64,000 bases of DNA. It comes from Isurus oxyrinchus (Eukaryota). The notes under the pieces were generated by a model, which saw only the letters and a program-made list of their open reading frames with translations, did no database searches and had not been told where the DNA came from. A program made the translations under genes and the position numbers. Below are positions 8,798 to 58,770 of this stretch, one piece after another. The stretch's first letter is position 1. Each line of letters opens with the position of its first letter. Where the stretch lies: positions 3,410,001 to 3,474,000 of the forward strand of contig JANJGN010000053.1 of assembly GCA_026770705.1 (NCBI GenBank). Reading direction: 5' to 3'.

Positions 8798-11700
8798 TGT
8801 CATGAAACAATTAACGTAATTTTTCTGGAGCATATTTTTATTTTAAAATAAATGTTTACTTTGCGGGTGTGTCTTACATAGATTAAGGTTGGTAGCCTGG
8901 GTCCTTTGATGGACACTAGTGTTGTTATGGAAAATAGGTAGTGTGCATTTGGATTTTTAAGTGGAACATTCAAGATGTTCTGTGAAAGCTTGATGCCAAT
9001 CTAATAGATGCTAAGCCATATGTTTATATTAATAATAAAATTTTGTAGTAAATGGTTTCTTTCTTAAAAGGTGAAGTTGGAAAATGCTGGTCAGACAATG
9101 GAGATTTGGATTGAATCATTGGTGGTAGTTATAACTTTAGCAATTTTCGGGTGTACAGAGCAGTGGCAACGTGAGATCAAAAGGCAAGACTCCATCTCAC
9201 TTGAAAGGAACATCATTGTTAACCTTTAAATAGAAAATGCTTTGCCTGGTGTTCGGTTAAGTTTATGGGTGGCTTTTGCCTCAATGGAGGTTAGTTTGGG
9301 AATTTGTTAAATGTTTTGTTCATAGCCACGTGCATCTATTTAAAATGTATAAATTAATAAAATGTTTCAATTAATTTAATGTAACATCTCGATAACTGGT
9401 GGCCTGATTCCTAAATTTAGAGTTGCATCTCAAACATAACATGTACATGTATAGGTTATGACAACTGTTTAAAATTTCCCTCTGATTTTTTTTTAATTAC
9501 CCCGCTTTACTAACTGCATTGGGCAAAAAAAAATTGAGGATCGTCGGGCATACAATATAATTCTTATTCCTCGTTTGGTTACGATTTGGTGAATCTGAAG
9601 CTTACTAGCTCGAGAGGCACTTTGAATTCCAGAGTTAATGGGATAGCAGGTTATCTTCGGCAATTGCTAAAACATCTCTGGGACTAGAAGGGGGAACACT
9701 GATTGATTTGAAAAGAATAACCAGAATTAATTTAACAGAGTTGGCAGTTAAGTCATAATTGAGCTTACTTGTGGGGGCTAGGAAATCTGGTATAGTTAAA
9801 AGCATAGCACAACATCTACAGTTAGATGTTAAACAAGATGTGGGTCACAGCTGGAGGTGGTGAGGCTTCAGTTGCAAATGAAATAAAACACTTTAATTAG
9901 AAGCAAAGGATAGAGCAATGGCTTTTAAAAGGGAATTAAAAATGGTAAAGATGGGGATTGAGGAAATAGAAAGAGAGAGAAAAACAAAATTCCAAATGAA
10001 AACGGCAGTTAAAAAATTGATGTCAACAGGTGGGGAAGGATTTGTCTCCAGATTAGAACCCAGTAGGGATACGTTTAACTTTGTATAAGCTCTCCCAAAT
10101 CTTGAGGATAAAATGTTGAAGCATTCTTCATTTCGGCTGACAAGTTAGCTAAACAGATGAAATGGTCACAGGAAAACTGAACATTATTACAACAGTGTAA
10201 CTTCTAAGGTATTGGGCATCAGGTATATGATACGATTTAAGAAGAAATTTAGGTGAATTATGCGGTGATGAAAAAGTTGGTTTGATGACGCATGCGTTGG
10301 TTCATGAAGCACACAGATAGGAATTGACAGATATGAGATAACAACTTTCGGAATATTATATTTCGTTTGAAAGATTAAAAAAAAATAATTTTCAACATTG
10401 GATGAGTGCGTTAAAAATAGAGACAACCTATGCAGCACTTAGTGGAGTCATTCTTTTGGAAGAATTTAAATTTTCAATCTCTTCCTTATGAGAACTCCTG
10501 TGGAAGAACAGAGAATTGATTCTCTAAGACAATCAGCAGAGATAGTTGAGAATACAAATTAGTTTGTAGATCTAAACCTTTTCTCTGTCATCTTTTCAAT
10601 TTTTTTTAAAACGAGGAATGGTGAAAGGAAGGGAGGCAGTCCTTTAAGAGAGTGAGAAGCTGGAAGTTCCCAGGAAGTATTTTTAAGAACAAAATGATGA
10701 GAGCTGAAGTCAGAAGTGACATTCAGAAATTGAGGCGTTTTCAATGTAATAAAGTAGGACACAACAAGTCAGCGTGTTTCAAGAAAAATCTGCAATAATT
10801 CCTGGGGTGCAGAAAAGCTCTGAAACTAAAGGTACTGTGGGTTCTGAGGTTCAGGCACAGGAGAAACCAATGGTTTGTGTACATGTGTAACAGTGAGAGT
10901 CAGTGAAATATAAAGAATATGGATTGCGTTCACAGTTTACACAAGAAAATTCTGAGGAACAGGTTGCAGAAATGTTGAAAGATTTTTTGGGTGAAGAAAA
11001 AGTCTTTCCATATGTTAGATATTAAAATTTGAAAAGTCACAAAGACTAGTTAACTATTAATGTTTGTGGGATAGTGCTGTTTGTTGTTGACAGTGTGTTA
11101 CAGGAGAAGATAATAAATAGTGGGGTTCATGGAGACTCCAATTCTTTTCAGCGTGGAAGTAAATTTAAAGAGCAGATGGAAGGCGGGTGAAGTTATAGTT
11201 GGAGCGGTGGAAATATTGTCCATTACAGTGGTTCATTTTTGTCTGGACAATTATACAGCTGAAACGCAAATGCGTGTGCTTCCTATTGTAGTTTAGCAGC
11301 CTGCAGAAGTGTTTTCAACAGAAGTGCAGCAGAAGGAACATCCTTGATGATTTCGTGATTGTGTTATAACAGGATCCAAAGCCATTAGGGAAGAACAAAA
11401 GAATCAAGATAAGCAGACAGTTCAAACGCAATAAGAAGGTGTCGAAATCCTTTTAGCTGTAAGAGTATTGGATAATATTGTTCAAGAGGAAGGCATTCTG
11501 GAAAGTTCAGTTGAAATGTTTAAGTCAAGACGTTAGTGGAGTTACAGGAAAATTATTTGCAATTAAAAGAGTTTGATCAGAAAACTTATTCAGAAACCGA
11601 AGCTAAGGTTATTCCAGTATGTGATTATCTTCGAGAGAATATATTAATGAAAAAACGGAAGTGGAATCATGTCTCAGCAAATGAGAGTTGGAGGGATCTC

Positions 11701-14700
11701 CTTCAAATTGTTATCCCATTAGGTTATAGAAATGAGATTCTAAGGATTAATCATTAAATTCCAAAGGGGCGGGTGGTGTTGACGGGCGAGGGAAGGGTGG
11801 GGTGGGGGAATAGGCGCTGGTGCGAGTGGTGACATTTAGGAATCAGGAGAAAAACATGAAAATATAGAGAGGTTTTTTTTTCTTTTTTTGGCCAGGATTG
11901 CATAGAGACTTGGTTAAATTCTGTGGAAAGTGTCATATATGTGAAGTAACAGGAAAATAATAAATAGTGATTAAGCCTGCGACATTAAGCTGAATATTTG
12001 CATTTGGCGATTCTTTTACCAGCTTCATTATTGATTGTGTAGGGCAACTCACTAAAATTAAAAGTGGAAATCGTTTGGTTATTGACAATAATGGATCTGC
12101 CTGTTAGGTTTCCTGAAGTACATAATTTAAAAAATATTGCAACTAAGAAATTTGAGGAGGAGATAATTATTTGTTTTATCAGATACGGTACACTGAAGGG
12201 AAGACAATCAGATCAGGGGTAAAATTTCATGACACAACTTTTTACGGAAGTAATGAATAGTGTGGGGTAAAGTCAACAGCTTATCATCCAGATTCAAAAG
12301 GATCATTGGGAGGGTGGCATCAACTTTAGAAACTATGTTAAGAGCATACTGTCAGAATTATGCTCGGGATTTGTATGCGGGAATTCCATGTCAGTTACTG
12401 GTTATTAGCGATGCTTTGAATGGATCTGCTGGTTTGTGTCCATTTGAACACGTTTATGGTCATGAGGTAGGGGGACCAGTGAAATTGAATCATCAGAAAT
12501 TATTCAGTTAAAATTCAGAAACTATTCTCCTGGGTTACTTATCAAATCTAGGAAAATTTTGAGCATAACATGTGAGTTGTCCGGGGAACATTTAAAAGTA
12601 TGACAGCAAGAAATGAAAGTGGAAGCAAATAAGAAGGCTATGATTAGCAGTCTTGAACTGAGGAGAAAGTATTAGTTTTGCTTCCAGCACTAGGGGATTC
12701 CATAAATGCAAGATATATGGGTCCTTACAGAGTTGAAAATAACTTGAATGAAGTAAATCATTTACTAATTATTACAGATAGAAGAAAGACGCAGAGGGTA
12801 TTCATATAAATATGCTTGAGAAGTACTTCGAAAGGGAAGAGGAATAAAAAGAGCTGTTAATGATGGTGGATGATCAGATAGAGCTAGAGCTACATGACTC
12901 TGAAATCGATATCACTTTAATCAAATTGGATAAAGTGGGGATGCTTGAAAATTTATATGAAATATGAAGTTACCTTCCAAACAAATTTCAACGTGATTTG
13001 AAAAAGCTAATGCAGTCACACAAACATATTTGTGCAAATAGGTTGTGAAACGAACATTTAGCTACATTTGATGTCTCGGTGCACTTTCATCTTCAATAAG
13101 GCAACATCCTTACAGTTAAAATCCGACACAGTTATCACATGTACAATAATAAATTGATCTCCTGCTTTAAAATGATATCATTGAGAGTACTTGCAGTAAC
13201 TGTATTTCGCCCATTGTACTGGTGCCAAAACCAATTGGAAATCAAATTTTGTTTGTGGACTATTGACAGTGAGTTTGGTGCCTAAGGCAGACTCATATTC
13301 CCCACTACAGTTGGAAGTTTGCATTGAGAAAGTGGGACAATCGAAATTTAACACAAATATAGGCTTGCTCAAAGGATAGTGCCACGTGCCTTTGTGGCAT
13401 AGAGCAAAGGAGATATCAGTTTTTGTAACGCCAAGTGGACTAAGTTAGTTGAAAGTCATGCCATTTGGTATTTCAGAGACTGGCAAAGAAAGCCATAGCG
13501 GGTCTAAGCAATTGTGTTCATACTGATGATCTAATTGTTTTCAGACAGTTTTGGCAGGAACACTTACAGTATCTGGAAGAATTATTTACTCCACTACATG
13601 AAGCAAATTTGATTATCAACTTGGCTAAATGTGAATGTGAAAAAGCGCAAGTTACCCATCTAGGCCATGTCATTGGGAATGGTAGGGTGGCTCTGAGCGT
13701 TGCGAAAGTGAAGGTTGTCGTGAATTTCCCAGTGCCTACAACAGAACGAGAAATATTGAGATTTCTGGGCATGAATGGGTTTTACCGGACATTTGCACCC
13801 AATTATAGGCAAGTGGTTGCACGACAGATTGAACTATTTATAAAGAACAAGAAGTTTCAATGGACACTGGAGTATCAGAAGTCCTTCAATAGCTTGAAAA
13901 CTGTATTAATTACGGCAGTAATATTGGCAGCACACAGTCATGCCAAGCAATTCAAGTTGGCAGCTGATGCAACCGATATAACTATTGGGGTTTGCTCCTA
14001 CACAAAGATGGCACTGGAATTGAAAAACAGATAGGAAATTTAGATATTAACAGGTCGAGAACGATACTTTGAGTCTGGTGCTCGCATTGCGGTCTTTTCA
14101 AATTCATGTTGCAAACAATTCATCATAAACTATTGATTCAATGGAGCGTGCTGCGTTGAAGTTTTTGGACAAATGTCAATACAAAAGTTCAAAGCTTTTC
14201 AGATGGATCTATTATTACATCCGATTAATCTACACATTATACATATTGCTGGAAGGGAAAATATGTTCACAGATATCAAGAATTTAAAGCTTAAGATAAG
14301 TTGGGACATTAAAAATATCCTGGACACTGAACTAAGTGATTTTAGTTGATACCAAGTGCTTTTTAAAATACATTATTATGCTAATGCATGGATCGTGTAA
14401 TTTAATAGTATAATGAATAAAGGAGATAGTATGAAATGGGTCATTATGATATGGCTGTCTTTTTAGAATTATGGTGGCTCATCTTTCGCTTAAGAGGAGA
14501 ATGCCTTTAGATATTAATGTTTATAATATTTTGGAAAATATTTTTAATTTTGAATTTAAGTTTTAGTCTTCGGGTGTGTCTTAATTGGATTAAAGCCAGC
14601 TAGTCTGGGGTATGTGTGCTTTGATGGGAATTAGTTTTGATATTGAAGGGAGATAGCGTGCATTTCCATTTTTTGAATAGAACATTCAAAATATGGGGTG

Positions 14701-15190
14701 AGAACTTGACGGCTATCTAGCAGATGCCAAGCCATATGTTTACATTAATGATGAAATTGTTACTGTGAAAAGGTTTGATTGTTTGTCGGTGAAATTCAAA
14801 GAGGTTGGTCAGGCAATGATAATTTGTATTGAATAATTAGGGGTATGAAGAACGTCAGCTCTTTTCGGGTGAACAGAGCAGAGAGAATGTGAGATCAAAA
14901 GCAGCTGCAGGGCTCCAACTGGCTTCACAGTGAAAATAACCTCAATGTGAATTTGTATGGTGAACATGCTTTGCCTGGTGTTTGGTTAAGTTTTTGGGTT
15001 GCTTTTGCCACAATACGGTTAGTTTATAATTTGTTAAATGTTTTGTTAGTACTGAATTCTAACCATGAGTATATATCTTAATCTATGTTTATTAATAAAC
15101 TCTTTCAATTAATGTAATATTAAACCACAAGAACTGGTGGTCTGATTCCTGAATTTTGAGTTCCATCTCAAACGTAACACTTAAAATTAG
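8798..15190 (+). mobile_element. Gmr1-type Gypsy LTR retrotransposon 2 (near full length, decayed)
   Basis: LTR 8798 to about 9528 (TGTCATG...), degenerate Pro PBS at about 9534-9551, gag with FQCNKVGHNKSAC knuckle (about 10740), integrase 11700-12800 (IIDCVG, QSDQG, GPY), RT 13080-13850, RNase H to about 14280, PPT taagaggaga 14491-14500, 3' LTR from about 14502 to 15190 (3'-truncated). Confidence 0.9.
13465..14034 (+). pseudogene. Residual RT/RNase H reading frame of element 2
   Basis: HTDDLIVF (degenerate YxDD), INLAKCE, LGHVIG, RFLGMNGFYR, FKLAADA. Confidence 0.85.
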
Positions 15191-20470: not shown

Positions 20471-21000
20471 CGGTGCATGGTGCCGACCTGAAATAAAAAA
20501 AAGAGGGGCTGCTGAAAAACCCAGCAGATCTGACAGAATTTGTAGCGACAGAAAAGTGCTATCGTGTGGAGATCTAACTGAGGCCTTTTCAGAAATGTGC
20601 AGTTGAACACTCATATATTTTATGCCGCAGAAAAATGGCGGAAGGTCACGTGCAGAAGAAAGGCAGGACAAGATTGGGTTTGTGAGGAGGAATTTAAAAA
20701 AAAAACACAAAGATGTCATGGGAAATCATGCAAACGGAGTGGTAGTGATAGTATTAAACTAAGAAAGTATCGGACGAGAGCAGGTGTCATAGTGGTATAT
20801 TGGCCAACACTCTCCGAAATCATAAACATGATAACCAGACACGACCGGGTCTTGGCAATAACATATGCCAGTTTTTGATAAGAAAGTATTGAACTCGAAG
20901 TTGCATCCAGAATGCTGTAAAATTTCTAAGCTGAAGAGGAGTTTAAGTTCCACCAACTTCTTTTGTGCTTCACTGGAACGTTAGAGCATGCGAGGTCAGA

Positions 21001-21960
21001 AATAAAAACAAAAAACTGCGGATGCTGGAAATCCAAAACAAGAAACAGAATACCTTGAAAAACTCTGCAGGTCTGGCAGCATCGGCTAAGAAAAAAAGAG
21101 TTGACGTTTCAAGTCCTCATGACCCTTCAGCAGAACTAAGTAAAAATAAAAGAGGGGTGAAATATAAGCTGGTTTAAGGTGGGGGAGTGGCGGGGAGAGA
21201 AGCGGGGGCGGGGGGTGATTGGAAGGACATGCAAGCAGTATTAGGAGCAGATAATCAAAAGACGTCGCAGACAAAAAAACAAAGAGAAGTGGTGATATTT
21301 TCCAGACGAATGTGCTAATAAAGAATGGATGGCGGGACACCCTGTACATCTCGAGGGGAGGTGGGGTGGAAAGTCTCACAGGGCATCAAAGGTATAGATT
21401 TAATAATATTGGAAATAGGTGGGAAAATAAAAATCTATATAAATTATTGGAAAAAAAAACTAAAGGAAGGGGGAAGAATCGTAATGTGACTGGGCATGAA
21501 GGAGGGATTTCAAGATCTAAAGTTGGTGAATTCAATATTCAGTCCAGACGTCTGTGAAGTGCCTAGTCAGAAGATGAAGTGCTGTTCCTCCAGTTTGTGT
21601 TGCGCTTCACTGCAACAATGCAGCAAGCGAAGGAAAGAGATGTGGGCAAGAGAGCAGAGTGGAGTGTTAAAATGGCAAGTGGCAGGGAGCTTTGGATCTT
21701 TCTTGCAGACAGACCACAGGTGTTCTGCAAAGCGGTTGCCCAGTTTACGTTTGGTCTCTCCAATGTACAGGAGACCTCATTGGGAGTGACGAATGCAGTA
21801 GACTAAGTTAGGGGAAATGCAAGTGAAATGCTGTTTCACTTGAAAGGAGTGTTTGGACCTTGGACTGTGAGGAGAGAGGAATTGAATGGGCAGGTGTTGC
21901 AGCTTTTGCGTGAGCATGGGGAGGTGCCCTAGGTTGGGGTTGAGTTGTAGGAGGAAAGAA
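21001..21960 (-). mobile_element. Young Penelope-like element 3' part with GIY-YIG endonuclease remnant
   Basis: Minus strand SFQVKQHFTCISPNLVYCIRHSQ*GLLYIGETKRKLGNRFAEHL (21715-21850); terminus shared with the insertions at 34044, 48700 and 58165. Confidence 0.85.
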
Positions 21961-32960: not shown

Positions 32961-34043
32961 TTAATGCAGTGCTGCACCTGTCAAATACGACCATGTTTTT
33001 CCTGTGGGACCTGTCATTGTATGAACGTATTCAATGCGGGGCATCATATTACACTTGCTGTAAGTAGAGCTGATGACGATGATTCTGGGTGCTGAATAAT
33101 CTCCATCGCTGTACACAGTCCCAAGAGCCACTGGGAAATTAGAATAATGTTTTAATGAATAATATTTCCATTATGATTATAATTAGCTAATACCCAATTG
33201 CAGGTTTTACAGCACAGTAACGAGGCTCTCAGCCAATCTTCCTGCTGGAGACAAACCCTACCCTTCTGCAGGTCATCGGAGACTATCAGTATAATCTTCG
33301 ATTCCTGTTTCCCTCATACTCAATTAACTTCATCGTAAATATCATCTCATCCACTCCACGTGGTCGCAATTCCATATTCTCAACGACATTAAAGTATATC
33401 ATTCTCTTTTCAGTATTTTCATGGATTTATTGCCGACTGCCCTGCATTGAGGTGAATGAGAATTGGACACACACACATGTGTCACAACTATCCTATCCTC
33501 ATTAGCCTCTGTTAATTTAATGGCCTCCATTCAATAGCCCATAAGCATTCTCTTATCCACAGGATTAAGGCATAACAATTTCCACAATGCTAATCTGTTT
33601 GTTTCCGTATTACCTTTGGACAGAATGTCGGCAGCTGATACATGGAGTTGTGATTCTGTTATGATCGGCCAGAACCTAACATATGTGTGAAATTCGCTAT
33701 TACCTCCATTCTATAAACAAACATATGTTTTAGTTCTTTTAGTGATCTTCCAGTTGAATTGAATGCCTGCTTTCTGATCGCATGTGCACCAACTCCATAA
33801 ATACCCTTCTATACATAATAATGTGATACATCTTTAGCTCCGGTACCCAAATTACGTGGAGTGGTCTGAGACAAATGTGAGTCTCCTGTATGAGGGCATT
33901 GCTCACACCTGAATGATGAGTTTCCTGCAGAAGGCTGTGATCCCAAACTGGGATGACTCTTTACACTGAGAGTTGTCGGAGATCACATAACGATGTCCAG
34001 TATACCCATTTTGGTTACTCGTGAACAACATTTAAGATGTCAA

Positions 34044-34300
34044 AACAAAACTGCGGATGCTGGAAATCCAAAACAAAAACAGAATTACTTGAAAAACTCA
34101 GCAGGTCTGGCAGCATCGGCGGAGAAGAAAAGAGTTGACGTTTCGAGTCTTCATGACCCTTCGACAGAACTTGATTAATGACTATCCTTTCAATTTGGCT
34201 CCTTTGCAATGCTTATTATTTCTGTAGGCTTACAGGCTTTCATCTTACATGTCTCAAATCAAGTTCTGTCGAAGGGTCATGAAGACTCGAAACGTCAACT
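34044..34300. mobile_element. Fold-back PLE-terminus insertion with 79-bp captured filler
   Basis: 15-bp TSD catttaagatgtcaa (34029-34043, 34301-34315); inverted arms 34132-34176 / 34257-34301; filler 34177-34255 identical to 35333-35411. Confidence 0.92.
34262..34300 (+). ncRNA. Minimal type I hammerhead-ribozyme-like motif of the PLE terminus (non-canonical core)
   Basis: AGTT-CTGTCGA-A-GGGTC(atgaa)GACTC-GAAAC-GTC-AACT: stem I, stem II, GAAA box and GUC site. Also at 34133-34171 (-), 21098-21137 (-), and 49655-49694 (+, GUC mutated). Confidence 0.6.
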
Positions 34301-34502
34301 CATTTAAGATGTCAACCTGGCTCCTGGAAGTAATCTGCTGCTTGGCTCAGAAACATATTTGTTACACCTGGTTTGGATGCTGGCTGAAGTCACGGTCGAG
34401 TTAAGCCTAACCACTGCCTTGCTACCAAATTCGTGCTGCTAAAATCCAATCTACCTGGACTCGGAAACGGAAAGAGTTCATCAGTAACCGCCCATCTCCG
34501 TC

Positions 34503-35006
34503 AATTGTGATCTTGTCCTATGGAAAGTGCCGGCTCTCCACCAGCGATACTTGCTACGCTGTGGTAATGGCACAAACAGAAGCCCTCATCATTATTTCAG
34601 TGGTTATGCTAAACCGAATCAATGATTATAGTGTCCCGCTCAATTTCCTGAAAATTACGCGTGTGCAGTGTTCGCTACACCTTGTTTCTTGCAACCACAG
34701 ACTGTACTGCTTGGTTAACTGTCACTTTCAATTTTGATCGATTCGATGTCATATGTTGCCAGAAGTTGAAATCTCAATATTGGACCAGATAAACTGCGGC
34801 TGTCGGTCTAGAAGCAGATAGCATTCCGTCCTGCTTAAAATAACCTTTCCAACCTAGGTTAGGTTTAACTATTATTGTTATCGGCAGCTCAGTTTGCCGT
34901 TGTTCTAAAAATCCAAGCTACTTTAATGATGCATGATCAGTTGCTTTTATGATCTTCGAAAAAAAAAACCGTATTGCTTCCAATCGGGTTAATTCCATTG
35001 TTCAAC
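34503..35006 (+). pseudogene. GPR139-like pseudogene 2, 5' part
   Basis: IVILSYGKCRLST...LNFLKIT...ATTDCTAWLTVTFNFDRFDVICCQKLKSQYW...LPIGLIPLFN with stops and frameshifts; cut by the LTR at 35007. Confidence 0.85.
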
Positions 35007-35759
35007 TGTTATAACACAGCATTTGGTTAATACCTTTATTTGAAACCCCAGAGGTAAAATGTATACAACTACCATAGCCTATACATTCAATTGGTATGTT
35101 GAATATGCATCTTTGATTTTGGAAATGAACCCACGAAGCCCCAAGAGGTGTGGATATCAAACTAAATTATATATTTATTTATTTACAACAGGTTATGAAA
35201 TACATACATATGTCTACAAATTACAACTATCACAATTTCTAAACAAATTCCCAAATTAATCTCCACTAAGGCACCTGTAATCAATAGACTTAACCAGACA
35301 CCAGGTAAAGCATTTTCACCTTATTGTATCAAAATGACTATCCTTTCAATTTGGCTCCTTTGCAATGCTTATTATTTCTGTAGGCTTACAGGCTTTCATC
35401 TTACATGTCTCTGCAAAGCACACAGATACCGTTCTCTAATAACGATCCTTTCCTTTTGAATGTAAATTTCCATTGATTCACCAGGTCCTTTGATCCCCTA
35501 TCATTGTATTAGCTTTATTAATAACATAAGCATTGCTTGGCATCTCCTAGCTGCGTGCAAGAATACACACCCATTCCTGAATGCTCCATTCAACAAAATC
35601 TAAATGAACACTCTACCTCTACTTACGGCTCAAAAATTACTATACATATAAGTACCTAGACGAGTTGTCTTTAATCCAGTTAAAATTCGCATTGGCCAAA
35701 CATCTACTAACAAAGAAAATTTCCAATATTATTATCTGCATGAATATCACTTCCTGACA
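35007..35759 (-). repeat. 3' LTR of element 3
   Basis: Homologous to 45164-45890, 56577-57396 and (reverse) 8798-9528 / 14502-15190; adjacent PPT. Confidence 0.85.
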
Positions 35760-38700
35760 TCCCCATTCCTATCGAAAAATGAACAGTCAGCATCCTAAAG
35801 GAAGTTTCCATTTTTTTAATAAACCATCTCACACTATGTCCCATACTTATTAGCCTATAATATTACCAGACGCATGCATTAAAATAAGGCACCGTTCCAT
35901 TGCAATGACCATGTTTTTGAAAATCCACAATTTTCCTTTAAGATTAAAACGCAGGTCCTCCACATGTATAATCCGTAGAATAAATGGTTGTAATAATAAT
36001 CTCTTCGTACAAGGTCTTGCACTTTTATCACAAAATTTCTCCAAATCTTCATGGGATTGTGGTCTAGATAAATAATTGTTTCCAATGAATTGCTTGCAAC
36101 ATAAATTTCAAAATGCTGCGTTGCCAGCATTATTGAACTCTATTTCTATCGTTGACTATCGGCTATGTTGCACGTCCAGCTCCTGTGAAAAAAATATCCT
36201 ACCGATTTTACAATTCCAATGTTATAAAGTTGTAAACGTACAGCCATAGTGCCTATATCGCTTGCATCAATGGCGAACATAAAGTGGCATAATTGGGTAC
36301 TTCCAAACTTGATGTCATAGTTAACACGTAGCTTTCGAACTACTCAATGACTTCTGACACACCAATGTCCATTGAAATTTCCTGTTCATTTATGATAATG
36401 CAGCCAGTGGAGCAACCACTCGGCTAAAATTTGACATAAATTTACCGTAAAACCCACTCATGCCCAGAAATATCATAAATTCTTGTTTTGTCGGAGGTAC
36501 TGGGAAATCCACGATATCCTTGACGTTCACATTACCTGAGAGCAACCTTACGATTTCCAATGATATGTCCTGGATGCTTAACCTGCACTTTTGCAAAATC
36601 ACTTTTAGCCGAGTTCAACGCCAAGTGAGCTTCTTATATTCGAGTAAATATGTTTTCCAGAGGGGGTGAATGTTCTAAATACAAACGTTTAGATCATCAA
36701 TAAAAACAACACAATTGCTTAGACCCGCAATTAATTTGTTTGTCATTCTTTAAAATGTCACGTGTGTATACTTCATAACAAATGGCATGACCTTAAACTG
36801 GTGTAGTTCACTTGATGTTACAAAGGCTCATATCCCTATTGCTCTCTCTGACAAAGGTTGCTGCCACTTTCCTTTAGCAAGCCAAGCTGTGTGATAAATT
36901 TCGATTGCCCTACTTTCTTAATACAATCTTCCAACCGTCGTGTAGGATATGAATCCGTTTTTGTCACCACATTCATCTCTCCATAGTCCAGAGAGAGTCA
37001 TAGTTCTCCAACTGGGTTCTGTACTAATGGATTAGGTGCACTCCATTTAGTGCAACTAGACTCACATATATAGCTTTGAAGCACAAAAGTAAGATATTTT
37101 TTGTATTTGAGATAACTTTGCCGGATTTAATCTATAAGGATGTTGCCTGATTGAAGAAAGAACTTGCACTGAGGCATTAAATATAGCAAAATGCATGTTT
37201 CCCAAATTCTTTCCACAAATACACATCTGTTACTGCAAAATAATTTCCAAACCACTTTGACACTTGTTTGGAACGTAACTAAATAGTTCATTAAAACTTT
37301 CAAGCACCCCCTCATTTTCTAATTCGATTAGAGGAAATTTAATTGCAGAGACCTGCAGTTCTAATTGTTCTTCTTCAGTCACCATCAAAAATAGCTCTTT
37401 TTGTTCCTCTTCCCTGTGAAAGCACGTTTGAAGCATATTTTCGTGTCCGACCCTCTGCTTTTTGGTTATATCTGGAGTATGTATTAAATAATTTCCTTCA
37501 ATCAATTTCTTTCCGATCCTGTAAGGCCCAGTAAATCGTCCATTTAATGAATCAGTTCGCAATTGTAACTGAACTAGCACTTTCTCTCCAGAAGAAAAAC
37601 TGTGTGGTTTAGCCTGCTTATTGGCCTTCACTTTCGTCAATTGCTGTGATATGTTCAAATGTTTCCTCGCCAACTCACATGCTCTGTTCAATCTTTCCCT
37701 GAAATCTTATGTAATCCAGAAAAATATCTTTTGTATTTGACCCATCAATTTTTCATGAATCAGCTTCAGTTGCCCCTTACCTTAGAGGCATACATTAGTT
37801 AAAAAGGGCTGAAACCAGTCGATGCATTTGGAGCGTCTCTAATAGCAAGTAAAAGGAATGGAATTCCTGCATTCCAATCCTGTGGATAATTCTCACAATA
37901 TGCCGTTCTCATTGTCTTTAGAGTTTGAAGCCATCTCTCAAAAGTTCCCCGTGATCCCGGAACTAAACTGTTGACTTAAACTGTTGAATCCCCAAATTGT
38001 TCATTTTTTTTTCACGAAAGAGCTGCGAAATTAAATTTGAAGACTTATCTGATCGCTTTTTTTACCTACACCCTACACCATAACATGCAAAAATAAAAAG
38101 TCCTCCACAATCCTCTGAGTTGAAATATTTCACAATCGTTTCAGGAAATCTCGTAGATACATTGATTATTGTCAGAAAATACTGATTTCCACTTTTGAAC
38201 TTAGAAAAGGGTCCTACAAAATCAATTGTAGCCCATGTAAAAGGTTATTCAAACGGTGGTATAGGGATTAAACGCACGGCTTTAATCACTGCTTGACATT
38301 TATAACAGGTTCTACAGAATTTTAATACATCCCTATGCAAACTGGGCAAAAATGTAAAGGCAATGGTTCGTTCCCTGTGTTTTCCTAGTTCCTAAATTTC
38401 CACACATTGGAATTTGGTGACATTCCTCAGAATCTCGTTTTCTTTTACCCAACTGGGATGATAACCTGATGAACTTCAACGCAGTCTTCATTTGCTAAGA
38501 AATAATCCGACTTCTGCTTTTACATTTAGATATCTCCCTAAAGATAATAACATATTGGAGTACAGTTTGCGTCTCTTTCTGCATAGACTTTCTGATATAA
38601 CTCCTTTATTTGTAAATCCTTTATTCTGTAACTTCACTAACTTCGTTGAGTTAAACACTTCTGTTTAACGGTCCTGCCTTCTTTCCTCCAGAAAAATGAT

Positions 38701-39642
38701 ATCAAATACAGTGTCAACTAATTCGATTTGGACATCTTTTAGCTTTTGAACTGCTTGCCCTTCGTGTGCGACTCGCTCTTCCCAGTAAGATTTTGACCTC
38801 GTTACAACACAATCAGGAAAGAATCCAGGATGTTCCTACTGTAACAGCTCTGTTGGAAATAATTATATAGGTTGCTCAAATTCTATAGGCATCAACCACA
38901 TTTGCGATCCAGCTCTATAGTTGCACATGTTGGCCACTGGCTGCAGCTCAACTGCCAGACACAGGCAAAAGCAAATTTTGAACTGAAGTATCTTGAGTCC
39001 AGTTGCTGGCCTGAGTAACTTTTCAAATCTGACTCCAATCACTGGGTCCGAACTGGTTAGAACCACTTTCAAAGAAGCTGAGTTTCATCAAGACAATGGA
39101 AATGTGATGCGTCCATATTTAGAAACAGAGAAACGAGATAATCCTTCAAGTCTTGGAACAGCCAATAGAGAAGATGCCAAAGATCAGAAAAGCAGACCAA
39201 AACCAACGGGAAGAGAGACAGAACAGCTTGAAGATATACAATTCAGTGTAACACCGAGAGGACTTCGGGCATCGGGCAGCGAGACTCTGGAGACCAACCA
39301 TGGCAGAAGTGAGGGAAACTACATCCGCAACGTTGAGATGCACGGGAGAGAGAAGGGAATGCCTGGCCAGCATCAGCTCTCCTTTTCGGATACTAGCTTT
39401 TATATTCTGTGACCACTCAGGGAGTGTCAGAGAAACCTAGTGTATGAGTGTTTAGATCCTAGTTCTGAGTATAAAACTGTATAACCTGCTGTAAACTGTA
39501 TGTCTATATTTAAACAGATGTATGAATTGTGTGTAGATGATCTAAAGACGTGAATAAGCACGTTCAAAGTTAAGAGAGAATTCGCTCTACTCCGCTGTGT
39601 ACTAAGCCATTAACCATTACCGGTGACCTCCTGCAACATGTT

Positions 39643-39660
39643 TGGTGTCCCTGTGTGAGC
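39643..39660 (+). promoter_or_regulatory. tRNA-Asn primer binding site
   Basis: tggtgtccctgtgtgagc vs TGGCGTCCCTGGGTGGGC (15/18, match extends by TC), 4 nt after the LTR CA end. Confidence 0.75.
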
Positions 39661-42600
39661 TCAAGGATAAGTCTCTGAGTTCAGTTACCGGGAGACTCAG
39701 GCGAACCAATTTGGCGAAGTATAGGCATAACAGGAGTTTGGGTTAATTCATAGCTGTTAACATAAGATGACGAATCAAAGGGAATATCTGTTTTGACTGG
39801 AAGGGAATTCTTCATAAATACGTAATAGGGGAGTGGCCGCATTACACGGAAAATGTAGGTCACATTGGTCACAAGGGAAATCCCGCTATAGAGGCCCTTT
39901 GGAGAATTGCGCAAACAAAGATGTCAGATAAGAAATTTAAAACAGGTACCGAAGTCCGTAGCGATCGGATGTTTATTTCAGGAATGGATAGAATGCTAAA
40001 AGCAAGCTAGGAGAGAGCGAGACAAACTAGAGGAAGAAAATAAGAAATTCCATGAGGAGTTTAGTGAGAATTGCATAGTGAGAAGGTTACTGATTTAAAA
40101 CAGCAGAGAAGTGTGGATTTGTTGCACATGAACCGATATCAGTTACAGTTCGAAAAATTGGCTGATAAAAAAGAGTAAGAGAGAGGGAGAAGCCCAAACA
40201 GCTAAAGCTGAGGAGGAGGGTTGGAAACAACAACGTAGTGATTTTAAAAGTGTTATGAATGTGATTCACAGAGCAGCTCAGGAAAAGAGGAGCACTGCTG
40301 GTGATCACACAAAGTGTCAGAAACTAATAGTGAGGCTGCAAGATCAGCCACCTGCACAGAGGGGCATACAGTGTGCTTTTACACCCGGAAGAAGTGAAGA
40401 AAAATGTCAAGGGGATATAGATTGGGATGATTTAGCAGGCGGGGTGAATAGATACAACGGAGGTGACGAGAAAACTCCACCAGAGAATCCACCACTGGCA
40501 TCTAAACCAGATCCGGAAAAACTGTCTGCCCAAATGGCCCCCCTTGTAACCACTAGAGCAAATGTAGGGCTGATGGCCAGGGTCAAGCCGGCCCTAATAT
40601 GACATATTCCAGCCCACTTGGGATACAAGCACTGAGGGATATTGCAAAATATATAGGGACGTGTGCACCCAGGGATGATCCGAGTGAGTGGTTCCTCGCA
40701 GTCAGGCAACAGGGAGGGGTACACGGCTTAGACGATGATGAGGAAAAATTAATTCTAATGTGCCTACACCCACATATATACTCTGCCCTACCGGAGGAGC
40801 AAAAACTTGGTAGAGGCACAAATGAGGCCTCAAAGAACCAGGTTTTACCTGTCATGGACGATAACAGAGGGGTCCCACTGTAGGCGCTGATGAAATGCTA
40901 TCAAAGAAAAGGTCAATACACCACCACAGTTTGGCTCGCATTTGGGTGGTATTTTAATTGGTCAATGCCACTGGCCTAGATAAGGATAATTTACAGCTGG
41001 AGGTTAGGAACTGTTGGCAGAGTATGCTCGTGTTGCAAGGCACTGAGGAGTCGAGGAAAGCATTGGATCAGTTTGATTCCACATATGACGCACATAGAGA
41101 GCACTGGATAATTAAAAAGATAGTTGGAGTATGGGAAAGGGAAACACCAAAACTACCCAAGACATCTTGGGACACAGCAATGCTTGTTAAGAATCAGCTG
41201 ACAACCTGGAGAAATGAAGGGAGGGGACCTCCTCAGAGGGACCATGCTCCAGCCTATCAGACATTGGGTAGAGACAGAGGAAAAGGAAACTTCTCGGGGA
41301 CGGGGTGAAATCAGGGCTAGGTGTCCAGATGGTATAACTGTGGCCGAGAGGGAAACTTCTCAAGCGACTGCCCAAACTGGAGACGAGAAAATTCAGGTCA
41401 GGGAGGAAACCGGAGCCTACCAGTGGAAGGACCGAATAGAGCAAGTCCGCAGTGTGATATGATAGAAATACCAGCGAGTTCTTAGTTGTACCCTGAACTG
41501 CAATGACGGTCTCAGGCCTCTCCATAATGGGTGTGTGATATGCAGTGGGATGACACGGGAAGACTCTTAGTGAATGATAGGGTTGGACGCCGGCCTATTA
41601 AATTACTTTGGGACACAGGGGGATCCCACACCGCCTTCAGCACCAGTCAGATCAATGACATCGATTGGAAAATTAAAAACAACATTTTTCTAAGCCGATT
41701 CACAGGACATTCACAAGTAGGATATGAGAGTGTACCGTTGGAAGTCGGTGTGGGAGACATATTGATAGAACATTCAGTGGCTCTTATCAAATTACTCAGA
41801 GAACTAGAACATCTTTCAGGGAGCGACTGTATGGTCAGAGCAGGATTCTGCTTTGACCTAGTTAATTGTATGATTTGACAAATGCCTTTGGACAAAGGCA
41901 GTATAAATCACACACTCACTGGGTAGGAAAATATCAGGATAGGATATGCACGATCGGGGAAACGTGGATAGAACCAGGAGAAATGAGTGATGATCTTCAT
42001 GTAAAACAAATTATTGCACAAAACTCAATATTAATCGTCCGACTAAAGCATGATTGTGGGAAAATGACCAGACGTGTGTGCATACAAGGTCCAGACTCCA
42101 AACCACAAAAGCAGTACGGTTTACCAAAAGAAGCAGAATAAGGGATAGGAAAGGTGATACAGAGTCTGCTGCAACAAGGGATATTAAGACCAATAGCTTC
42201 TACTAACAATGCACATATATGGCCGGTGAAAAAAACCAACAGCAGCTGACAACTACAGATAGACTACAGAGAATTAAGGGAAGTGACCCCTTTAACACCC
42301 CTACTGTAGCAACTAGCCCAGAGACAGTAGTTCGACAAAATAAGAATGGCAATGGTTCACAGTTTTGGACATAAGTAACGGTTTTTGGTCTAGTGCACAG
42401 GAGAAAGTATGTCAATATAAATTCGTTTTTACTTTCCATGGAAAGCAATATAGATGGACCACCCTGCCATAGGGATTTCAGAATTCCCTGTCCATATTTC
42501 ACCAACGTGTAAGGGAAGGGTTAAAAGGATTCTCGAGGCCTGAATTTCTAGTGCAGTATGTAGACGACGTACCCCTACAAATTGAAACCAAAAAGCAACA

Positions 42601-44417
42601 TAATCAACGACTAAGTGAATTACTGCAGTTAAGTGACTTGGGATTAAAGATCAACCCTAAACAAGCGCAGATCATGAAACAATAAGTTACTTACTTGGCA
42701 ATGATTGTGACACCGGGGAAGAGGGACATTGACAAGCGTAGGATGAACACAGTTGGCAGACTCAATGTTACAAGACGTAAAAGGGTTAACGTCCTTCTTA
42801 GATTTGGTCTGATATTGTAGGGACCACATAGGTGGATTCACCAAAAAAGCAGCACCGCTAATGGAATTATTTAAAAAGAATTTGACCTGTGAGTGGAAAA
42901 CATTACAAACCCAGGCCATGAACGCTCTAAAGCAAGCATTAGCTGCTGTGTCAGCTCTGAAAACCCCAAATCCAACTGAGCCATTTTCATTTGGGGTGGC
43001 TATCACAGACACCACCCTTTCAGCAGTTCTATTACAGGAGACACATGGGAACTTACGACCCGTAGCGTATGCCTCACATATGCTCTCACCAGTACAGTAG
43101 GGGTATACGATATGCACAAAACACTTGCTAACTGTCTTTTGGGCAGTGCAGCATTTTACCTTTATAGTGGGAATAAACACAATTACAACATTAACAGAAC
43201 ACATCCCTGTACAGCTACTGAATTACGGAACGATTAAGGATGGTACAGTTAGACAAATAGAATCCCTAGATGGATAATGTTGCACGGGAGAAATATAACC
43301 ATAAAGGGGGATAAAACACTATCATGTTAAGAGATAACTTACTTTATCAGGGAGAAAAACAAGAATGTCAAATTATGAATGCAAATGACTCCAAGGGCCC
43401 ATTTGTATCAGAAGAAAAGGGAGGGCGTAGGACTGGGCCTGAAAGTAGAAAAACAAAGCAATCAGGAAAGGAAAACCCTATTTTAAATCCTGGTGAATGG
43501 CTCTTCATCAGTACAGCATGGGGAAAGGAGAACTGTCTGTGGGATATCCATGGAGTATGAAAACGGACAGGAAAGATTTAGAGCGGCTTTGAAATATCCA
43601 TAAAACCATGAGTGTGCAGGGAGCAGAACTAGCAGCCATTGCATATGTGGTTTGACACCCGGAATATTTCCGCCTAGATCAGTCATATATTTTGATGGCA
43701 TGTCTGTCTGTAATAGCCTCACAGAACATTTGCCCCTATTGGATGCAAAAGATTTTGTCTCTGCAGATGGAAGGCCTCTTCCTTCCTCCCCGCTATTGCA
43801 ATACATCTTTCAAGAAGCACAAGGGAAAGAATTTGTGGTCAAAAAAGTGAAAGCTCATTCAAAATTATCTCCCGATGGGAACAGGAATTCTGATGAACTA
43901 GCCAAACGAGGTGCTGTAAGTGGACAGGAATGGTAGCCACTGATTTTGGAAATCGGGGGCCAGAAAGAGAAGCAGGTTAAAGTAATGGATTTAATGGATG
44001 AGCAAAAGAAAGATGGAGAATTGAAAAAAATTAATAGAAGGAGCACAGTCAGACATACTTTAAAAGCACGAGGGCGTCTATATTCAAAATTGAGTGGTTT
44101 TACGTGAGCGGAAATTTGGGCCACCAGAGGAGGGGCGAAAGCAAATTATCCACCAGTACCATGACTTATGGGGACATAAAGGAATGGAGAGTACCCTGTA
44201 TTCGATAAAGGAGGTATGCTGGTGGCCAGGAATGAAAGGTGGTGTGCACCACTATGTCAAGATTTGTTGATCTGTGCACAACACAACCCCGATAGAAATT
44301 TTAGGAAAGGGGCCTCCAACATAATAGACCAGTAGAAGGGCCTTGGACTAAGTTACAGATAGACTATGTAGGATCCCTTCCCCCACAACAGAGGACTACA
44401 AGGATATTCTAGTATTA

Positions 44418-44873
44418 TTGGATACCTTCACTAAACAGGTGGAAGCTTTTCCGAACAGAACAAACACAGCCAAAATTACTGCAATTTTTTTTTTAGGGAA
44501 GGTGTTTACATGCTGGGGTTTACCTGGAGACAGAGAATTGCATCAGGGAACATGTTTTACAGCCCAAGTAATGCACGATGTTATGAATCTTTTTGGGATC
44601 AGGCAGAGATTCCACATACCCTATAGACCACAGTCTAGTGGAATTGTGGAAATTCTGAATCGGACATTGAAGAACATGCTAGCCAAAATGGTGCAGCAGC
44701 ACAAGACAAACCGGCAGGTTGTTCTGCCCTATGTGCTGATAATAATCAGGAATACCATGGCTTCAACAGGATACACTCCTTATAGGCTTATGACAGGTAG
44801 GGACATGAGGGGATTGGAGGGGTTGGTAGATCTGGATTTGGACTCAAGAATGAGGTTGGTTGATGCAAACTAA
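44418..44873 (+). pseudogene. Provirus integrase catalytic core remnant
   Basis: DTFTKQVEAFP...WGLP....HQGTCFT...YRPQSSGIVEILNRTLK...TGYTPY.LMTGR. Confidence 0.85.
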
Positions 44874-45163
44874 TCATTACTCGTTGTCCGGGGCTCAACT
44901 CTGTCAGGCTAGCTTTTGCATCGAAATAAGCCTTGCTTTGCTGTTTCTTCTTTCCCTGTCGGTGAGCAATTACATAATTTGCTTCTTGTACAGTTTCTAC
45001 TAGTTGTTGTACCCATTTTACTAAAATAATGTGTAAACACTTTCTCTAAAATAAATTTCGCAATAATTTTGGATGTGTTTGATCTGGTCGGAAAAGCTTC
45101 CACCCACTTAGGTTGACCACATTATATCAGACAAAATTGCTGTATACCCCAACAGTTCAAAAT

Positions 45164-45890
45164 TGTTATGCCATAGCAGTTTTAAAAGACTGTTATTTAA
45201 AATCCGAGGGGACAACTTCCAACAACCGTCATAACCGATGTTTTCAATTGGAATATTTGATATGGAACTCTGAATTCATAAATGAACCAGCCAAACCCCC
45301 AGACGTCTCTATATCAAACTAAATTAAACTTGTATTGTTTTGCAAAAAGGTATTAAACACATACACATGTCTACACATTTCTATTTTAAATTTTAAACAA
45401 ATTCCCAAGGAAACAATAACCAATAGACTTAAGCAGAGACTAGGCGGAGCATTTTCACCAGACGAATTCGAAATGTAGTTCCTTACAGTTTGGTTCCAAT
45501 ACTAACAGTTTTAATCTTACAAATTTTCAACTTACACGTCTCTGTGATGCACATGGGTACACCCTTCTGCTAAACCTAGCCTTTCTTTCTGAATGCAAAT
45601 TTTCATTGTATGACCAGGCCCTTTGAAATCCGTTCATAGCTCCATTGTCACCAGTAATAAAAGGATTGCTTGGTGTCTTCCTAACTAGATGCAAGATTTT
45701 ACCGCACTCTTGAATGTTCTATTTAGCAAAATGCAAATGTATCCGACAGCCCTGTTTACATCTGAAAACTACGGTACACCAAAGCACCCAGCCTCGCTGG
45801 CTTTCATCCAATTAGCACACACAGACTAATACTCGATTAAAAATGTTAGAAAAACTCCAATTATATTATCATTACTTCCTCTTCCTGACA
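45164..45890 (-). repeat. 5' LTR of element 3
   Basis: tgttatgcc...cttcctgaca, colinear with 35007-35759. Confidence 0.85.
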
Positions 45891-46200
45891 TCAAATCTCT
45901 GACAGCGAGAGACATTTTATTGGCCAGCCGAGTTCACCAGAGACTGAGGGGACAGACTGTGGGAGAGACTCACACTTTCGATCTTTGGTGTATATTTTAG
46001 ATATCTTGATGTCCTAAATGCTTGAGATGATGAATTTTCTTGCACCTATGATAATGTTGCGTAAATGCTGTGGACCTTAAGTTGCTGCACAAAAAAAATA
46101 TTTATATGTTGACTCAGGCTTAGTTCAGAGTGCAGTTGAAGAACGCGGTGAATCATCCACTACATCGATTAAGAAATTAATTGCTGAACAAAAGAACTGA
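45891..46200 (+). pseudogene. GPR139-like pseudogene 2, 3' part
   Basis: SLTARDILLASRVHQRLRGQTVGE corresponds to VLTVRHVIVSSRVTKGLRVQG in pseudogene 1 and resumes directly after the LTR/TSD. Confidence 0.8.
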
Positions 46201-48699: not shown

Positions 48700-49794
48700 A
48701 AACAAAAACAGAATTACCTGGAACAACTCAGCAGGTCTGGCAGCATCGGCGGAGAAGAAAAGAGTTGAAGTTTTGAGTCCTCATGACCCTTCGGAGAACT
48801 TGATTTCGATCCAAGAAAGAGTTGAAATATAAGCTGGTTTAAGGTGTGTGTGGGGGGGGGCGGAGAGATAGAGAGAGAGAGGTGGTTGTGTGGACAAACA
48901 AGCAGTGATAGAAGCAGATCATCAAAAGATGTCAGCGACAATGGTACAATAGAACACATAGGTGTTAAAGTTAAAGTTGGTGATATTATCTAAACGAATG
49001 TGCTAATTAAGAATGGATGGTAGGGCACTCAAGGTACAGCTCTAGTGGGGGTGGAGGGAGCATAAAAGATTTTAAAATATTTAAAAATAATGGAAATAGG
49101 TGGGAAAAGAAAAATCTATATAATTTATTGGGGGGAAAAAAGGGGGAAACAGAATGGGGGTGGGGATGGGGGAGGGAGCTCACGACCTAAAGTTGTTGAA
49201 TTCAATATTCAGACCGGAAGGCTGTAAGGTGCCTAGTCCGGTCTGAATATTGAATTCAACAACTTTAGGTCGTGAGCTCCCTCCCCCATCCCCACCCCCT
49301 TTCTGTTTCCCCCCTTTTTTTCCCTATAAATTATATAGATTTTTCTTTTCCCACCTATTTCCATTATTTTTAAATATTTTAAACTCTTTTATGCTCCCTC
49401 CACCCCCACTAGAGCTGTACCTTGAGTGCCCTACCATCCATTCTTAATTAGCACATTCGTTTAGATAATATCACCAACTTTAACTTTAACACCTATGTGT
49501 TCTATTGTACCATTGTCGCTGACACCTTTTGATGATCTGCTTCTATCACTGCTTGTTTGTCCACACAACCACCTCTCTCTCTCTCTATCTCTCCGCCCCC
49601 CACACACACACCTTAAACCAGCTTATATTTCAACTCTTTCTTGGACTCGAAATCAAGTTCTGTCGAAGGGTCATGAGGACTCGAAACTTCAACTCTTTTC
49701 TTCTCCGCCGATGCTGCCAGACCTGCTGAGTTTTTCCAGGTAATTCTGTTTTTGTTTTGGATTTCCAGCATCCGCAGTTTTTTTTTTTTGTTTT
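48700..49794. mobile_element. 1.1-kb palindromic (fold-back) young PLE insertion
   Basis: Arms 48700-49218 and 49237 to about 49757 are near-perfect reverse complements, 18-bp spacer, 14-bp TSD catttcaatatctg (48686-48699, 49795-49808). Confidence 0.93.
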
Positions 49795-57449: not shown

Positions 57450-58770
57450 ATTCCTTGCATAAGCCTCAGATATACGAGAAAATCAAGTTTCCCACAATAA
57501 TCTAAGGCAATCAGAGAATGCCTGTCAGCAACTTCACCACCCGAGAAAGAATTGTGTGAGAGACTGGAAAGATAAAAGGAACTGTTTAGAATTCGAGCAA
57601 AGAAGGAGAGTGTTATAGGAAGAAATTGAGGGTGGAAGACTTTAGTAGCTCCTATAGCCTTACGAACTACAAAATTGGACAAATCACAACTTCGTTAAAA
57701 TGTACTCAGTCACCTTTTCCATCATGCAGCCTTGATTCTGAAATCGGACGCACTAAAGCTACCCTGCACGACAATCGGAACTTTGCTCATTGTGTGCTAC
57801 TCAACATCATGAATTGTACAAAGGTAAGCACTTTTATTCCTGACAAGTTCTCCGTCTACGTCAAATTCCCCTTGGAGTGCAAGGTGTCTCAAATATTTGA
57901 GCAGCGGGCAAAGCAAAAAGTATTTTTTCACTGTGGTAGTGCAATAGTGGCACAGTGTTGCCAACAAGCGAAAATATGATCTTCTTACCACACAAATTAG
58001 TAACGTGCTGGATGAGTTCCATAGTTTCTATGATTATTGCTTTCTAGGCGATATGTCCCAATGACTGGTGCATCGTTTCAACAACAGTTCAATTCTATTG
58101 CTTCTACTGACCCGACTCAAGCACCCCGTTTTTGTAAAACACAGGAGAAACAATCAAACTTTAAAATAAAAATTAAAAAACTGCGGATGCTGGAAATCCA
58201 AAACAAAAACAGAATTACCTGGAAAAACTCAGCAGATCTGGCAGCAGACCTGATGAGTTTTTCCAGGTAACTATGTTTTTGTAATCAAACTTTAAGTGTG
58301 ATTCAGCAATTGGGGAGACTTACATAACAATCTCCAGTGTATTGAGATTTACACTCGCACTCAATATAAGATTAACAAACGGCTTGCAGTCAGGCTCACT
58401 CACATTTGCTAGTACCCTTTTATGCAGCATTCAGACGCAAGGCATTGTCCCATGTAAATACAATAACATGCCCAGTCACTGCGCCTTATTTAAGTAAAAG
58501 GATTGGGGTTCAAAATTTCCTTGGAACATTCTTAATGCCAAAACATCGAAAATATTAACCGATTTGCCTGCATTGAATTTAAAGAAACGATTGAGCATAT
58601 TTGTTGCTTGTGCATTGCTCATGAAAACACCTCAAGAAATCAATGTCCGCTTGCCAACCAATCAACATTATTTTTCAAGCATATAAATTATTGTTACATT
58701 TTAAATTTGGAATTCTAATGGATACTGTCCTGATGACTGAAAACTAAAAGCTTCCACAACATGTTTATCT
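57450..58770 (+). mobile_element. Penelope-like element family B, decayed
   Basis: SYSLTNYKIG...SCSLDSEIGRTKATLHDN..., VYVKFP, TTQISNV; homologous to 23400-24350; hammerhead-like remnant ctgatga...aaaagctt at about 58728-58755. Confidence 0.7.
58165..58282. mobile_element. 118-bp fold-back young PLE-terminus insertion
   Basis: 13-bp TSD aatcaaactttaa (58152-58164, 58283-58295); the sequence reverses on itself at about 58241. Confidence 0.9.

Follow-up and report, generated by a model that had tools for sequence, protein, structure and literature searches.

Lying on the forward strand of a 64,000-nucleotide stretch of the Isurus oxyrinchus assembly GCA_026770705.1 (contig JANJGN010000053.1, positions 3,410,001 to 3,474,000; hereafter the window, whose own coordinates are used throughout) is a provirus with the retroviral layout of long terminal repeat (LTR), primer-binding site (PBS), gag, protease, reverse transcriptase (RT), tether, RNase H and integrase (Table 1). 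The order of the pol domains on this strand, from the protease through an RT with a YVDD motif to the tether, RNase H and integrase, had been proposed in an initial annotation made from the DNA letters, and is borne out by Pfam matches and motifs, with the protease falling below the Pfam cut-off. The extent first assigned to the element, 38925..45110, needed trimming on both sides: the LTR begins at 38928, as defined by its TGTTG...CAACA ends, and the provirus proper stops at about 44840, with an inverted integrase piece occupying 44841-45110. The copy is heavily broken. Eleven frame segments spanning 40132-44840 carry 16 stops, including the TGA at 41504-41506 that is likely the natural end of gag, and the locus is unable to make Gag or Pol. 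We consider it quite probable that the locus holds an endogenous retrovirus (ERV) of Retroviridae proper, decayed and truncated at its 3' end, from the assemblage of ERVs resembling snakehead retrovirus (SnRV), which is class III-related and known as 'clade Huo'. In this reading an older Gypsy element received the insertion, and a later local deletion took away the end of integrase, env and the 3' LTR.

Table 1 Features of the provirus and of the Gypsy sequence on either side of it
Feature	Coordinates	Strand	Observations
5' LTR, 711 bp	38928..39638	+	Inverted ends TGTTG...CAACA; TATAAAA at 39470; poly(A)-signal-like AATAAG at 39553
Primer-binding site, 4 nt past LTR	39643..39660	+	tRNA ambiguous: Asn, or lokiretrovirus type with one gap
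gag, with stops and frameshifts; start uncertain	39767..41506	+	Coiled-coil, capsid-like region, one degenerate zinc knuckle; TGA end in frame with pol
Single CCHC-type knuckle	41330..41371	+	Two of four zinc ligands missing in this copy; Pfam zf-CCHC E 0.039, under cut-off
Aspartic protease, DTG 41612-41620	41507..41900	+	Frame of gag end; Pfam gag-asp_proteas E 0.021, below cut-off
Reverse transcriptase, YVDD 42557-42568	42106..42893	+	RVT_1 E 2.5e-17; several frames, stops
Tether (degenerate Ty3/Gypsy-type RNase H)	42894..43265	+	RT_RNaseH_2 E 9e-21, LLQE..RPVAYAS; without catalytic residues
Second (true) RNase H, broken	43487..43930	+	E 1.3e-5; best match P0013, 42%, E 1e-24
Integrase zinc finger and core; ends after core	44124..44840	+	Zinc finger E 1.5e-13; core E 5.5e-6
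Inverted integrase piece	44841..45110	-	One stretch resembles 44431-44510 at 84-86% and continues into post-core integrase sequence
Host Gypsy element, integrase before RT	36035..38927	-	67% like + strand copy 11248-14041; alignment reaches 38923
LTR-like repeat of host Gypsy	45161..45892	-	67% like 35004-35761; also like LTR of second Gypsy copy

The gag region matches the Gag part of a coelacanth protein (P0010, E 4e-6), and its capsid piece resembles retroelement and retrotransposon Gag capsid families; a search for the Gag capsid gave 0 of 82 candidates, which is weak evidence. Gag had been described as ending in a CCHC zinc knuckle, and a single knuckle is indeed present, although degenerate, with two ligands gone and a sub-threshold Pfam match; its best local match is to SnRV Gag (E 0.11). 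The TGA that ends gag stands in the same frame as the protease. The provirus accordingly combines a single (degenerate) Gag CCHC with an in-frame gag stop, as do SnRV and lineage I of the elephant-shark CmiERVs (CmiERV-I). Between protease and RT lie 167 codons, compared with 161-173 in seven of seven near relatives. The PBS is real, and the tRNA-Asn first assigned to it is one of two readings: the presumed vertebrate tRNA-Asn end agrees with it at 15 of 18 letters, ungapped, and the PBS printed for three lokiretrovirus consensus elements (presumably of Met type) agrees at 15 of 17 letters once a single gap is allowed. It matches neither the PBS of SnRV nor that of CmiERV-I.

RT sequences for phylogeny came from homolog searches, which yielded frog, coelacanth, turtle, ostrich and unnamed proteins plus lokiretroviral, epsilon-like and Gypsy proteins, and from viral contigs, which supplied SnRV (L001) and foamy, gamma, epsilon and delta genomes. 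Viral labels (SnRV, BFV, FFV, MuLV, FLV, REV, WDSV and four lokiretrovirus stand-ins) were assigned by comparing the start of RT with published rows, and two further proteins (P0019 and P0094) were labelled lokiretroviral by motif and tree position; the remaining foamy and delta labels are presumptive and follow tree position. For L001, which is 10,688 nt long, the RT start equals the published SnRV row (PMC7947760, PMC12193657). A quick tree of 93 rows (92 proteins and the provirus, with short, near-duplicate and surplus Gypsy rows dropped) stands beside two careful maximum-likelihood trees rooted on Gypsy, one with 57 rows under LG+G4 and one with 38 rows under the mixture model LG+C20, the latter leaving out P0155 (a near copy of ostrich P0016) and two off-register deltaretrovirus rows.

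In both careful trees the lokiretroviruses form a clade (100/99) that is sister to a clade of the other retroviruses (100/99), and the provirus lies in the latter; the quick tree agrees, placing it in the retrovirus clade with an SH-aLRT (Shimodaira-Hasegawa-like approximate likelihood-ratio test) support of 99. Every Gypsy row (8/8 under LG+G4 and 6/6 under LG+C20) is split from the provirus by two successive branches supported at 100/99-100. The provirus RT groups with P0262 and P0002 (100/95-97) and then with P0013 (96/94) in both careful trees, and under LG+G4 it belongs to a 16-row cluster (94/96) together with frog, Xenopus, coelacanth and turtle rows and P0063, a protein that matches CmiERV-I by eye. 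Over the kept columns, RT identity to the provirus is 60% for P0262, 56% for P0002, 47-49% for the frog, coelacanth and turtle proteins and 42% for SnRV, the highest value among the exogenous viruses tested, as against 28-33% for all six lokiretrovirus rows, 28-33% for foamy rows and 22-30% for all eight Gypsy rows. The motif LPxG is found in the provirus and in 37 other retroviral rows (lokiretroviruses 0/6, Gypsy 0/8), and S[RG]W[PL] occurs in six of six lokiretrovirus rows and not in the provirus. Neither of the lokiretroviral RT motifs (S[RG]W[PL], and PFG replacing LPQG, both our own reading of the published alignment) was found in the provirus RT. Approximately unbiased (AU) tests reject a union of provirus and lokiretroviruses under LG+G4 (p=0.021) and narrowly reject one with mammalian foamy viruses (p=0.042); they do not reject a clade of the 16-row cluster with SnRV (p=0.38), which the trees did not recover, nor a union with the CmiERV-I-like pair (p=0.236). 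The provirus is a deep-branching part of the retrovirus family, truly retroviral and neither Gypsy nor mammalian foamy virus, and the lokiretrovirus-like affinity at first proposed for it gives way to RT trees that place it outside the lokiretrovirus clade and to an RT devoid of the motifs of that clade.

What had been called a Gypsy-like first RNase H does match a Gypsy-type Pfam family and does carry LLQE..RPVAYAS, but it is an ordinary tether, lacking catalytic residues here as in intact relatives, SnRV and lokiretroviruses. A tether followed by a second RNase H is present in the provirus, as in lokiretroviruses; because dual RNase H is common to all retroviruses (PMC7947760), the arrangement does not mark lokiretroviruses. 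The tether also shares with lokiretrovirus rows a stretch that Gypsy rows lack. Lokiretrovirus-like tethers and integrases are, however, found in the frog, coelacanth and Xenopus relatives too, and the frog and coelacanth relatives match the provirus better than lokiretroviruses do in every Pol domain; we therefore read these likenesses as retained ancestral states and not as lokiretrovirus membership.

Five of the retroviral Pol proteins of this group (P0004, P0005, P0009, P0010 and P0016) are annotated as 'protein NYNRIN-like'. Together with their lokiretrovirus-like integrases, this annotation hints that the NYNRIN/CGIN1 integrase may come from the present assemblage rather than from lokiretroviruses alone. 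In one of the five, the Pyxicephalus gene model P0005, integrase is followed at residues 1200-1291 by sequence resembling a signal peptide and by an Ig-like domain that Pfam Ig_3 matches only under its cut-off (E 0.012). This part may belong to an env or accessory gene that a frog SnRV-like ERV expressed by splicing, or it may be a host exon joined to the model by mistake.

SnRV-like ERVs are known from the elephant shark (PMC4422223, Han 2015), and clade Huo is described across all major vertebrate groups as a possibly ancestral branch (PMC6001957, Xu et al. 2018; PMC4977317, which cites Hayward et al. 2015). The coelacanth, frog and turtle members of this assemblage (P0004, P0005, P0009 and P0010) share with the provirus their RT motifs, tether, RNase H, integrase and protease-to-RT spacing; unlike them, the provirus has a supported sub-branch of its own with P0262, P0002 and P0013, and a different PBS. 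CmiERV-I resembles it by eye in the single CCHC, a gag end reading Gln-TGA-C, a pre-capsid D-W..L..Y motif and a Gypsy-like tether motif, and its stand-in P0063 falls in the same 16-row cluster (LG+G4), but RT identity to that stand-in is 39%, the PBS is another one, and nothing is missing from CmiERV-I, which has both LTRs and an env that by eye includes a gamma-type TM. SnRV has the RT motifs, the single CCHC and the in-frame gag stop, and differs in its tether (25% identity), integrase (31%) and PBS and in a complex genome with env and accessory open reading frames; a Pfam comparison of its Env, run to E 1, showed no match to PF00523, the paramyxo/pneumovirus F family that the env of lokiretroviruses resembles. 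Class III elements of the XtERV-S and ERV-L kind likewise have an in-frame TGA between gag and pol and LTR ends of the form TGT...ACA, but, unlike the provirus, they are described with YIDD, without a Cys-His box, with a dUTPase and, in XtERV-S, with a Ser PBS (PMC8278194). The provirus probably falls among a group of ERVs already known from a chimaera (CmiERV-I, PMC4422223), yet at a distance from its stand-in there; this largely refutes the initial reading by the standard that it had set itself. It is likely an additional decayed family within the known but thinly sampled SnRV-like, class III-related ERVs. Paper searches, with subscription journals and repeat libraries outside their coverage, found no description of this family itself.

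Several observations weigh against an SnRV-like assignment. The tether is 34-39% identical to lokiretrovirus rows versus 25% to SnRV, the integrase 38-40% versus 31%, and the PBS is nearer to that of lokiretroviruses than to those of SnRV or CmiERV-I. The RT and integrase phylogenies asked for by the initial annotation differ in resolution: the RT trees place the provirus outside lokiretroviruses and Gypsy, and the integrase tree (48 rows, no CGIN1 row) leaves the provirus, its relatives and the lokiretroviruses in one polytomy. Gag resembles that of SnRV without reaching significance (best E 0.11), and the nearest relatives P0262, P0002 and P0013 are proteins without names. The 16-row cluster dissolves under LG+C20; SnRV, which has no settled position in the LG+G4 tree, never groups with the provirus with support, and the LG+C20 tree puts it with foamy, gamma and epsilon rows (94/87) to the exclusion of the provirus group. 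Under that mixture model, too, the AU test does not reject a union of provirus and lokiretroviruses (p=0.066). The RT trees were built without rows for Odin elements, fish or shark foamy-like ERVs (FLERVs), ERV-L/ERV-S, or alpha-, beta- and lentiretroviruses. On the side of the insertion history, the two Gypsy LTR-like repeats flanking the site are just 67% alike, so that their membership in one element is our deduction.

Some of these observations would suit an undescribed lineage of Retroviridae proper, made up of the provirus, P0262, P0002 and P0013, that branched off earliest and kept an ancestral lokiretrovirus-like tether, integrase and PBS, 'SnRV-like' then denoting a grade. A position on the first branch of Retroviridae is not rejected (AU p=0.365), the quartet is supported at 96/94 in both careful trees, the union of SnRV with foamy and gamma/epsilon rows under LG+C20 leaves the group aside, and the tether stretch missing from Gypsy, the integrase identities and the 15/17 PBS match are likenesses to lokiretroviruses. 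Against this, the free trees do not place the provirus first, and lokiretrovirus-like tethers and integrases, recurring as they do in frog, coelacanth and Xenopus relatives, are not special to the quartet. The AU test tolerates the 'novel basal lineage' suggested at first, but the assemblage as a whole had already been described as possibly ancestral (PMC4977317). We regard an earliest-branching lineage as unlikely; were it real, no closer link between lokiretroviruses and the remaining retroviruses would be known, and SnRV-like ERVs would be a basal grade retaining the ancestral C-terminal half of Pol.

A foamy-like ERV, for example one akin to the shark CmiFLERV and primed by tRNA-Asn like newt and galago foamy-like elements, appears very improbable. 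Among PDB entries the RT piece matches foamy RTs best, by a small margin over those of murine leukaemia virus type (62 versus 60 bits), Asn PBSs are reported for NviFLERV, and shark FLERVs exist (PMC5512871); yet the AU test narrowly rejects a union with mammalian foamy viruses, RT identity to foamy rows does not exceed 33%, and the printed rows of (ray-finned) fish FLERVs differ in their motifs by eye. Foamy Gag, moreover, has no Cys-His box, in agreement with the initial statement that mammalian foamy Gag lacks zinc knuckles, and foamy pol lies in a separate frame (PMC8278194), unlike the arrangement here. Still harder to credit is a lokiretrovirus, the first in cartilaginous fish should the host belong there, or else a recombinant whose 3' half is lokiretroviral. 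Such a reading could call on the dual RNase H, the similar PBS with its 4-nt spacer, the tether and integrase identities to lokiretroviruses (Wang and Han 2021, PMC7947760) and the AU result under the mixture model, but RT identity is low, the provirus lies outside the lokiretrovirus clade in three of three RT trees, the union is rejected under LG+G4, and the RT motifs are absent. The tether, RNase H and integrase all match the frog and coelacanth group better than lokiretroviruses, which argues against a recombinant. Three lokiretrovirus Gag entries show no knuckle in their displayed parts; lokiretroviruses are recorded in none of six chondrichthyan genomes (PMC7947760 Fig. S1), which agrees with the earlier remark that shark examples had not been reported. 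Odin retrotransposons, from cnidarian hosts, cluster with lokiretroviruses (PMC12440569), the clade from which the provirus RT stands apart. Finally, a Ty3/Gypsy retrotransposon that had gained an extra RNase H would account for the Gypsy-type Pfam matches of the tether, the retrotransposon-like capsid piece and the lack of env in this copy, but it is refuted by the two strongly supported branches that separate the provirus from all Gypsy rows, and catalytic residues retained by Gypsy rows are missing from the tether; we give this reading next to no credence.

An SnRV-like provirus inserted into Gypsy sequence and later truncated also fits what surrounds the element. The interruption of the host Gypsy element is plain from the alignments on either side (Table 1); the order of integrase before RT in these Gypsy elements is what we presume to be Gmr1-like. 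Past the integrase core come the 270-bp inverted integrase piece and then, within about 50 bp, the Gypsy LTR-like repeat, and these two account for the DNA at this end. No second match to the 5' LTR, and hence no 3' LTR, is present in the 64-kb window, where the 5' LTR is single-copy. The second Gypsy copy has about 1.7 kb between its LTR and the matching point, and the same ~1.7 kb is gone at the insertion site along with the 3' end of the provirus, from which we infer a local deletion. Loss of env and the 3' LTR by a deletion that also took this part of the host Gypsy is likely. As stated at first, env is missing from this copy: a tblastn search with SnRV Env among its queries showed only RT and integrase among the 40 matches listed. 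Given the deletion, no conclusion about the virus follows from this absence. Frequent exchange of env within the group means, besides, that its type may not settle membership by itself.

The 5' junction is spanned by contigs from two organisms, A and B (records 3 and 10), and the inversion junction near 44840 by one from organism B (record 16), so these junctions are not assembly errors and are older than the split between A and B. In each of two runs of organism B, one contig skips the inverted piece and passes directly from 44840 to 45110, with short sides of 22-26 letters, an observation that speaks against full fixation of the structure; the deletion junction possibly exists in two forms. 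Many different contigs cover single gag and LTR positions, and the family is therefore multi-copy, contig depth not being a measure of copy number; a scan of metagenomes (37 candidates, one unrelated locus) found no full-length relative. The provirus is an old fossil of a multi-copy family, probably an ordinary one and not a missing link.

From what is known of the family, the ancestor would have been transcribed from its LTR and reverse-transcribed from a host tRNA annealed at the PBS. To make Gag-Pol, translation may have read through the in-frame TGA, a mode described for XtERV-S (PMC8278194) and seen in SnRV, and the single knuckle would have served RNA packaging. Of the two RNase H-like domains, the second would have supplied the activity, while the tether, itself catalytically dead, acted as a linker. 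Integration, leaving TG...CA ends, would have hit the older Gypsy element, and a later local deletion would have removed the end of integrase, env and the 3' LTR.

With the provirus, a known but sparsely sampled group of retroviruses from aquatic vertebrates gains another decayed family, and its case makes clear that neither a dual RNase H nor a tether of Gypsy type identifies lokiretroviruses. Of greater value is the side point that the tether and integrase of the whole group are nearer to lokiretroviruses than to SnRV; if better sampling were to root the group at the base of Retroviridae, this would bear on the repeated replacements of RNase H and integrase proposed for retroviral history (PMC7947760).

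Elsewhere in the window, decayed Gypsy elements in which integrase precedes RT occupy 8817-15179 (+), 35004-38927 with 45161-45892 (-), and 5368-5997 (+), their LTR-like pairs being only 67-72% alike. Rfam and ARAGORN gave no matches within the window. A near-perfect palindrome of 1.06 kb at 48700-49757, 96% self-complementary and resembling a miniature inverted-repeat transposable element, has kin pieces at 21000-21568, 34042-34305 and 58164-58282, and a perfect 79-bp direct duplication (34177-34255 and 35333-35411, 1156 bp apart) edges this palindromic repeat family.

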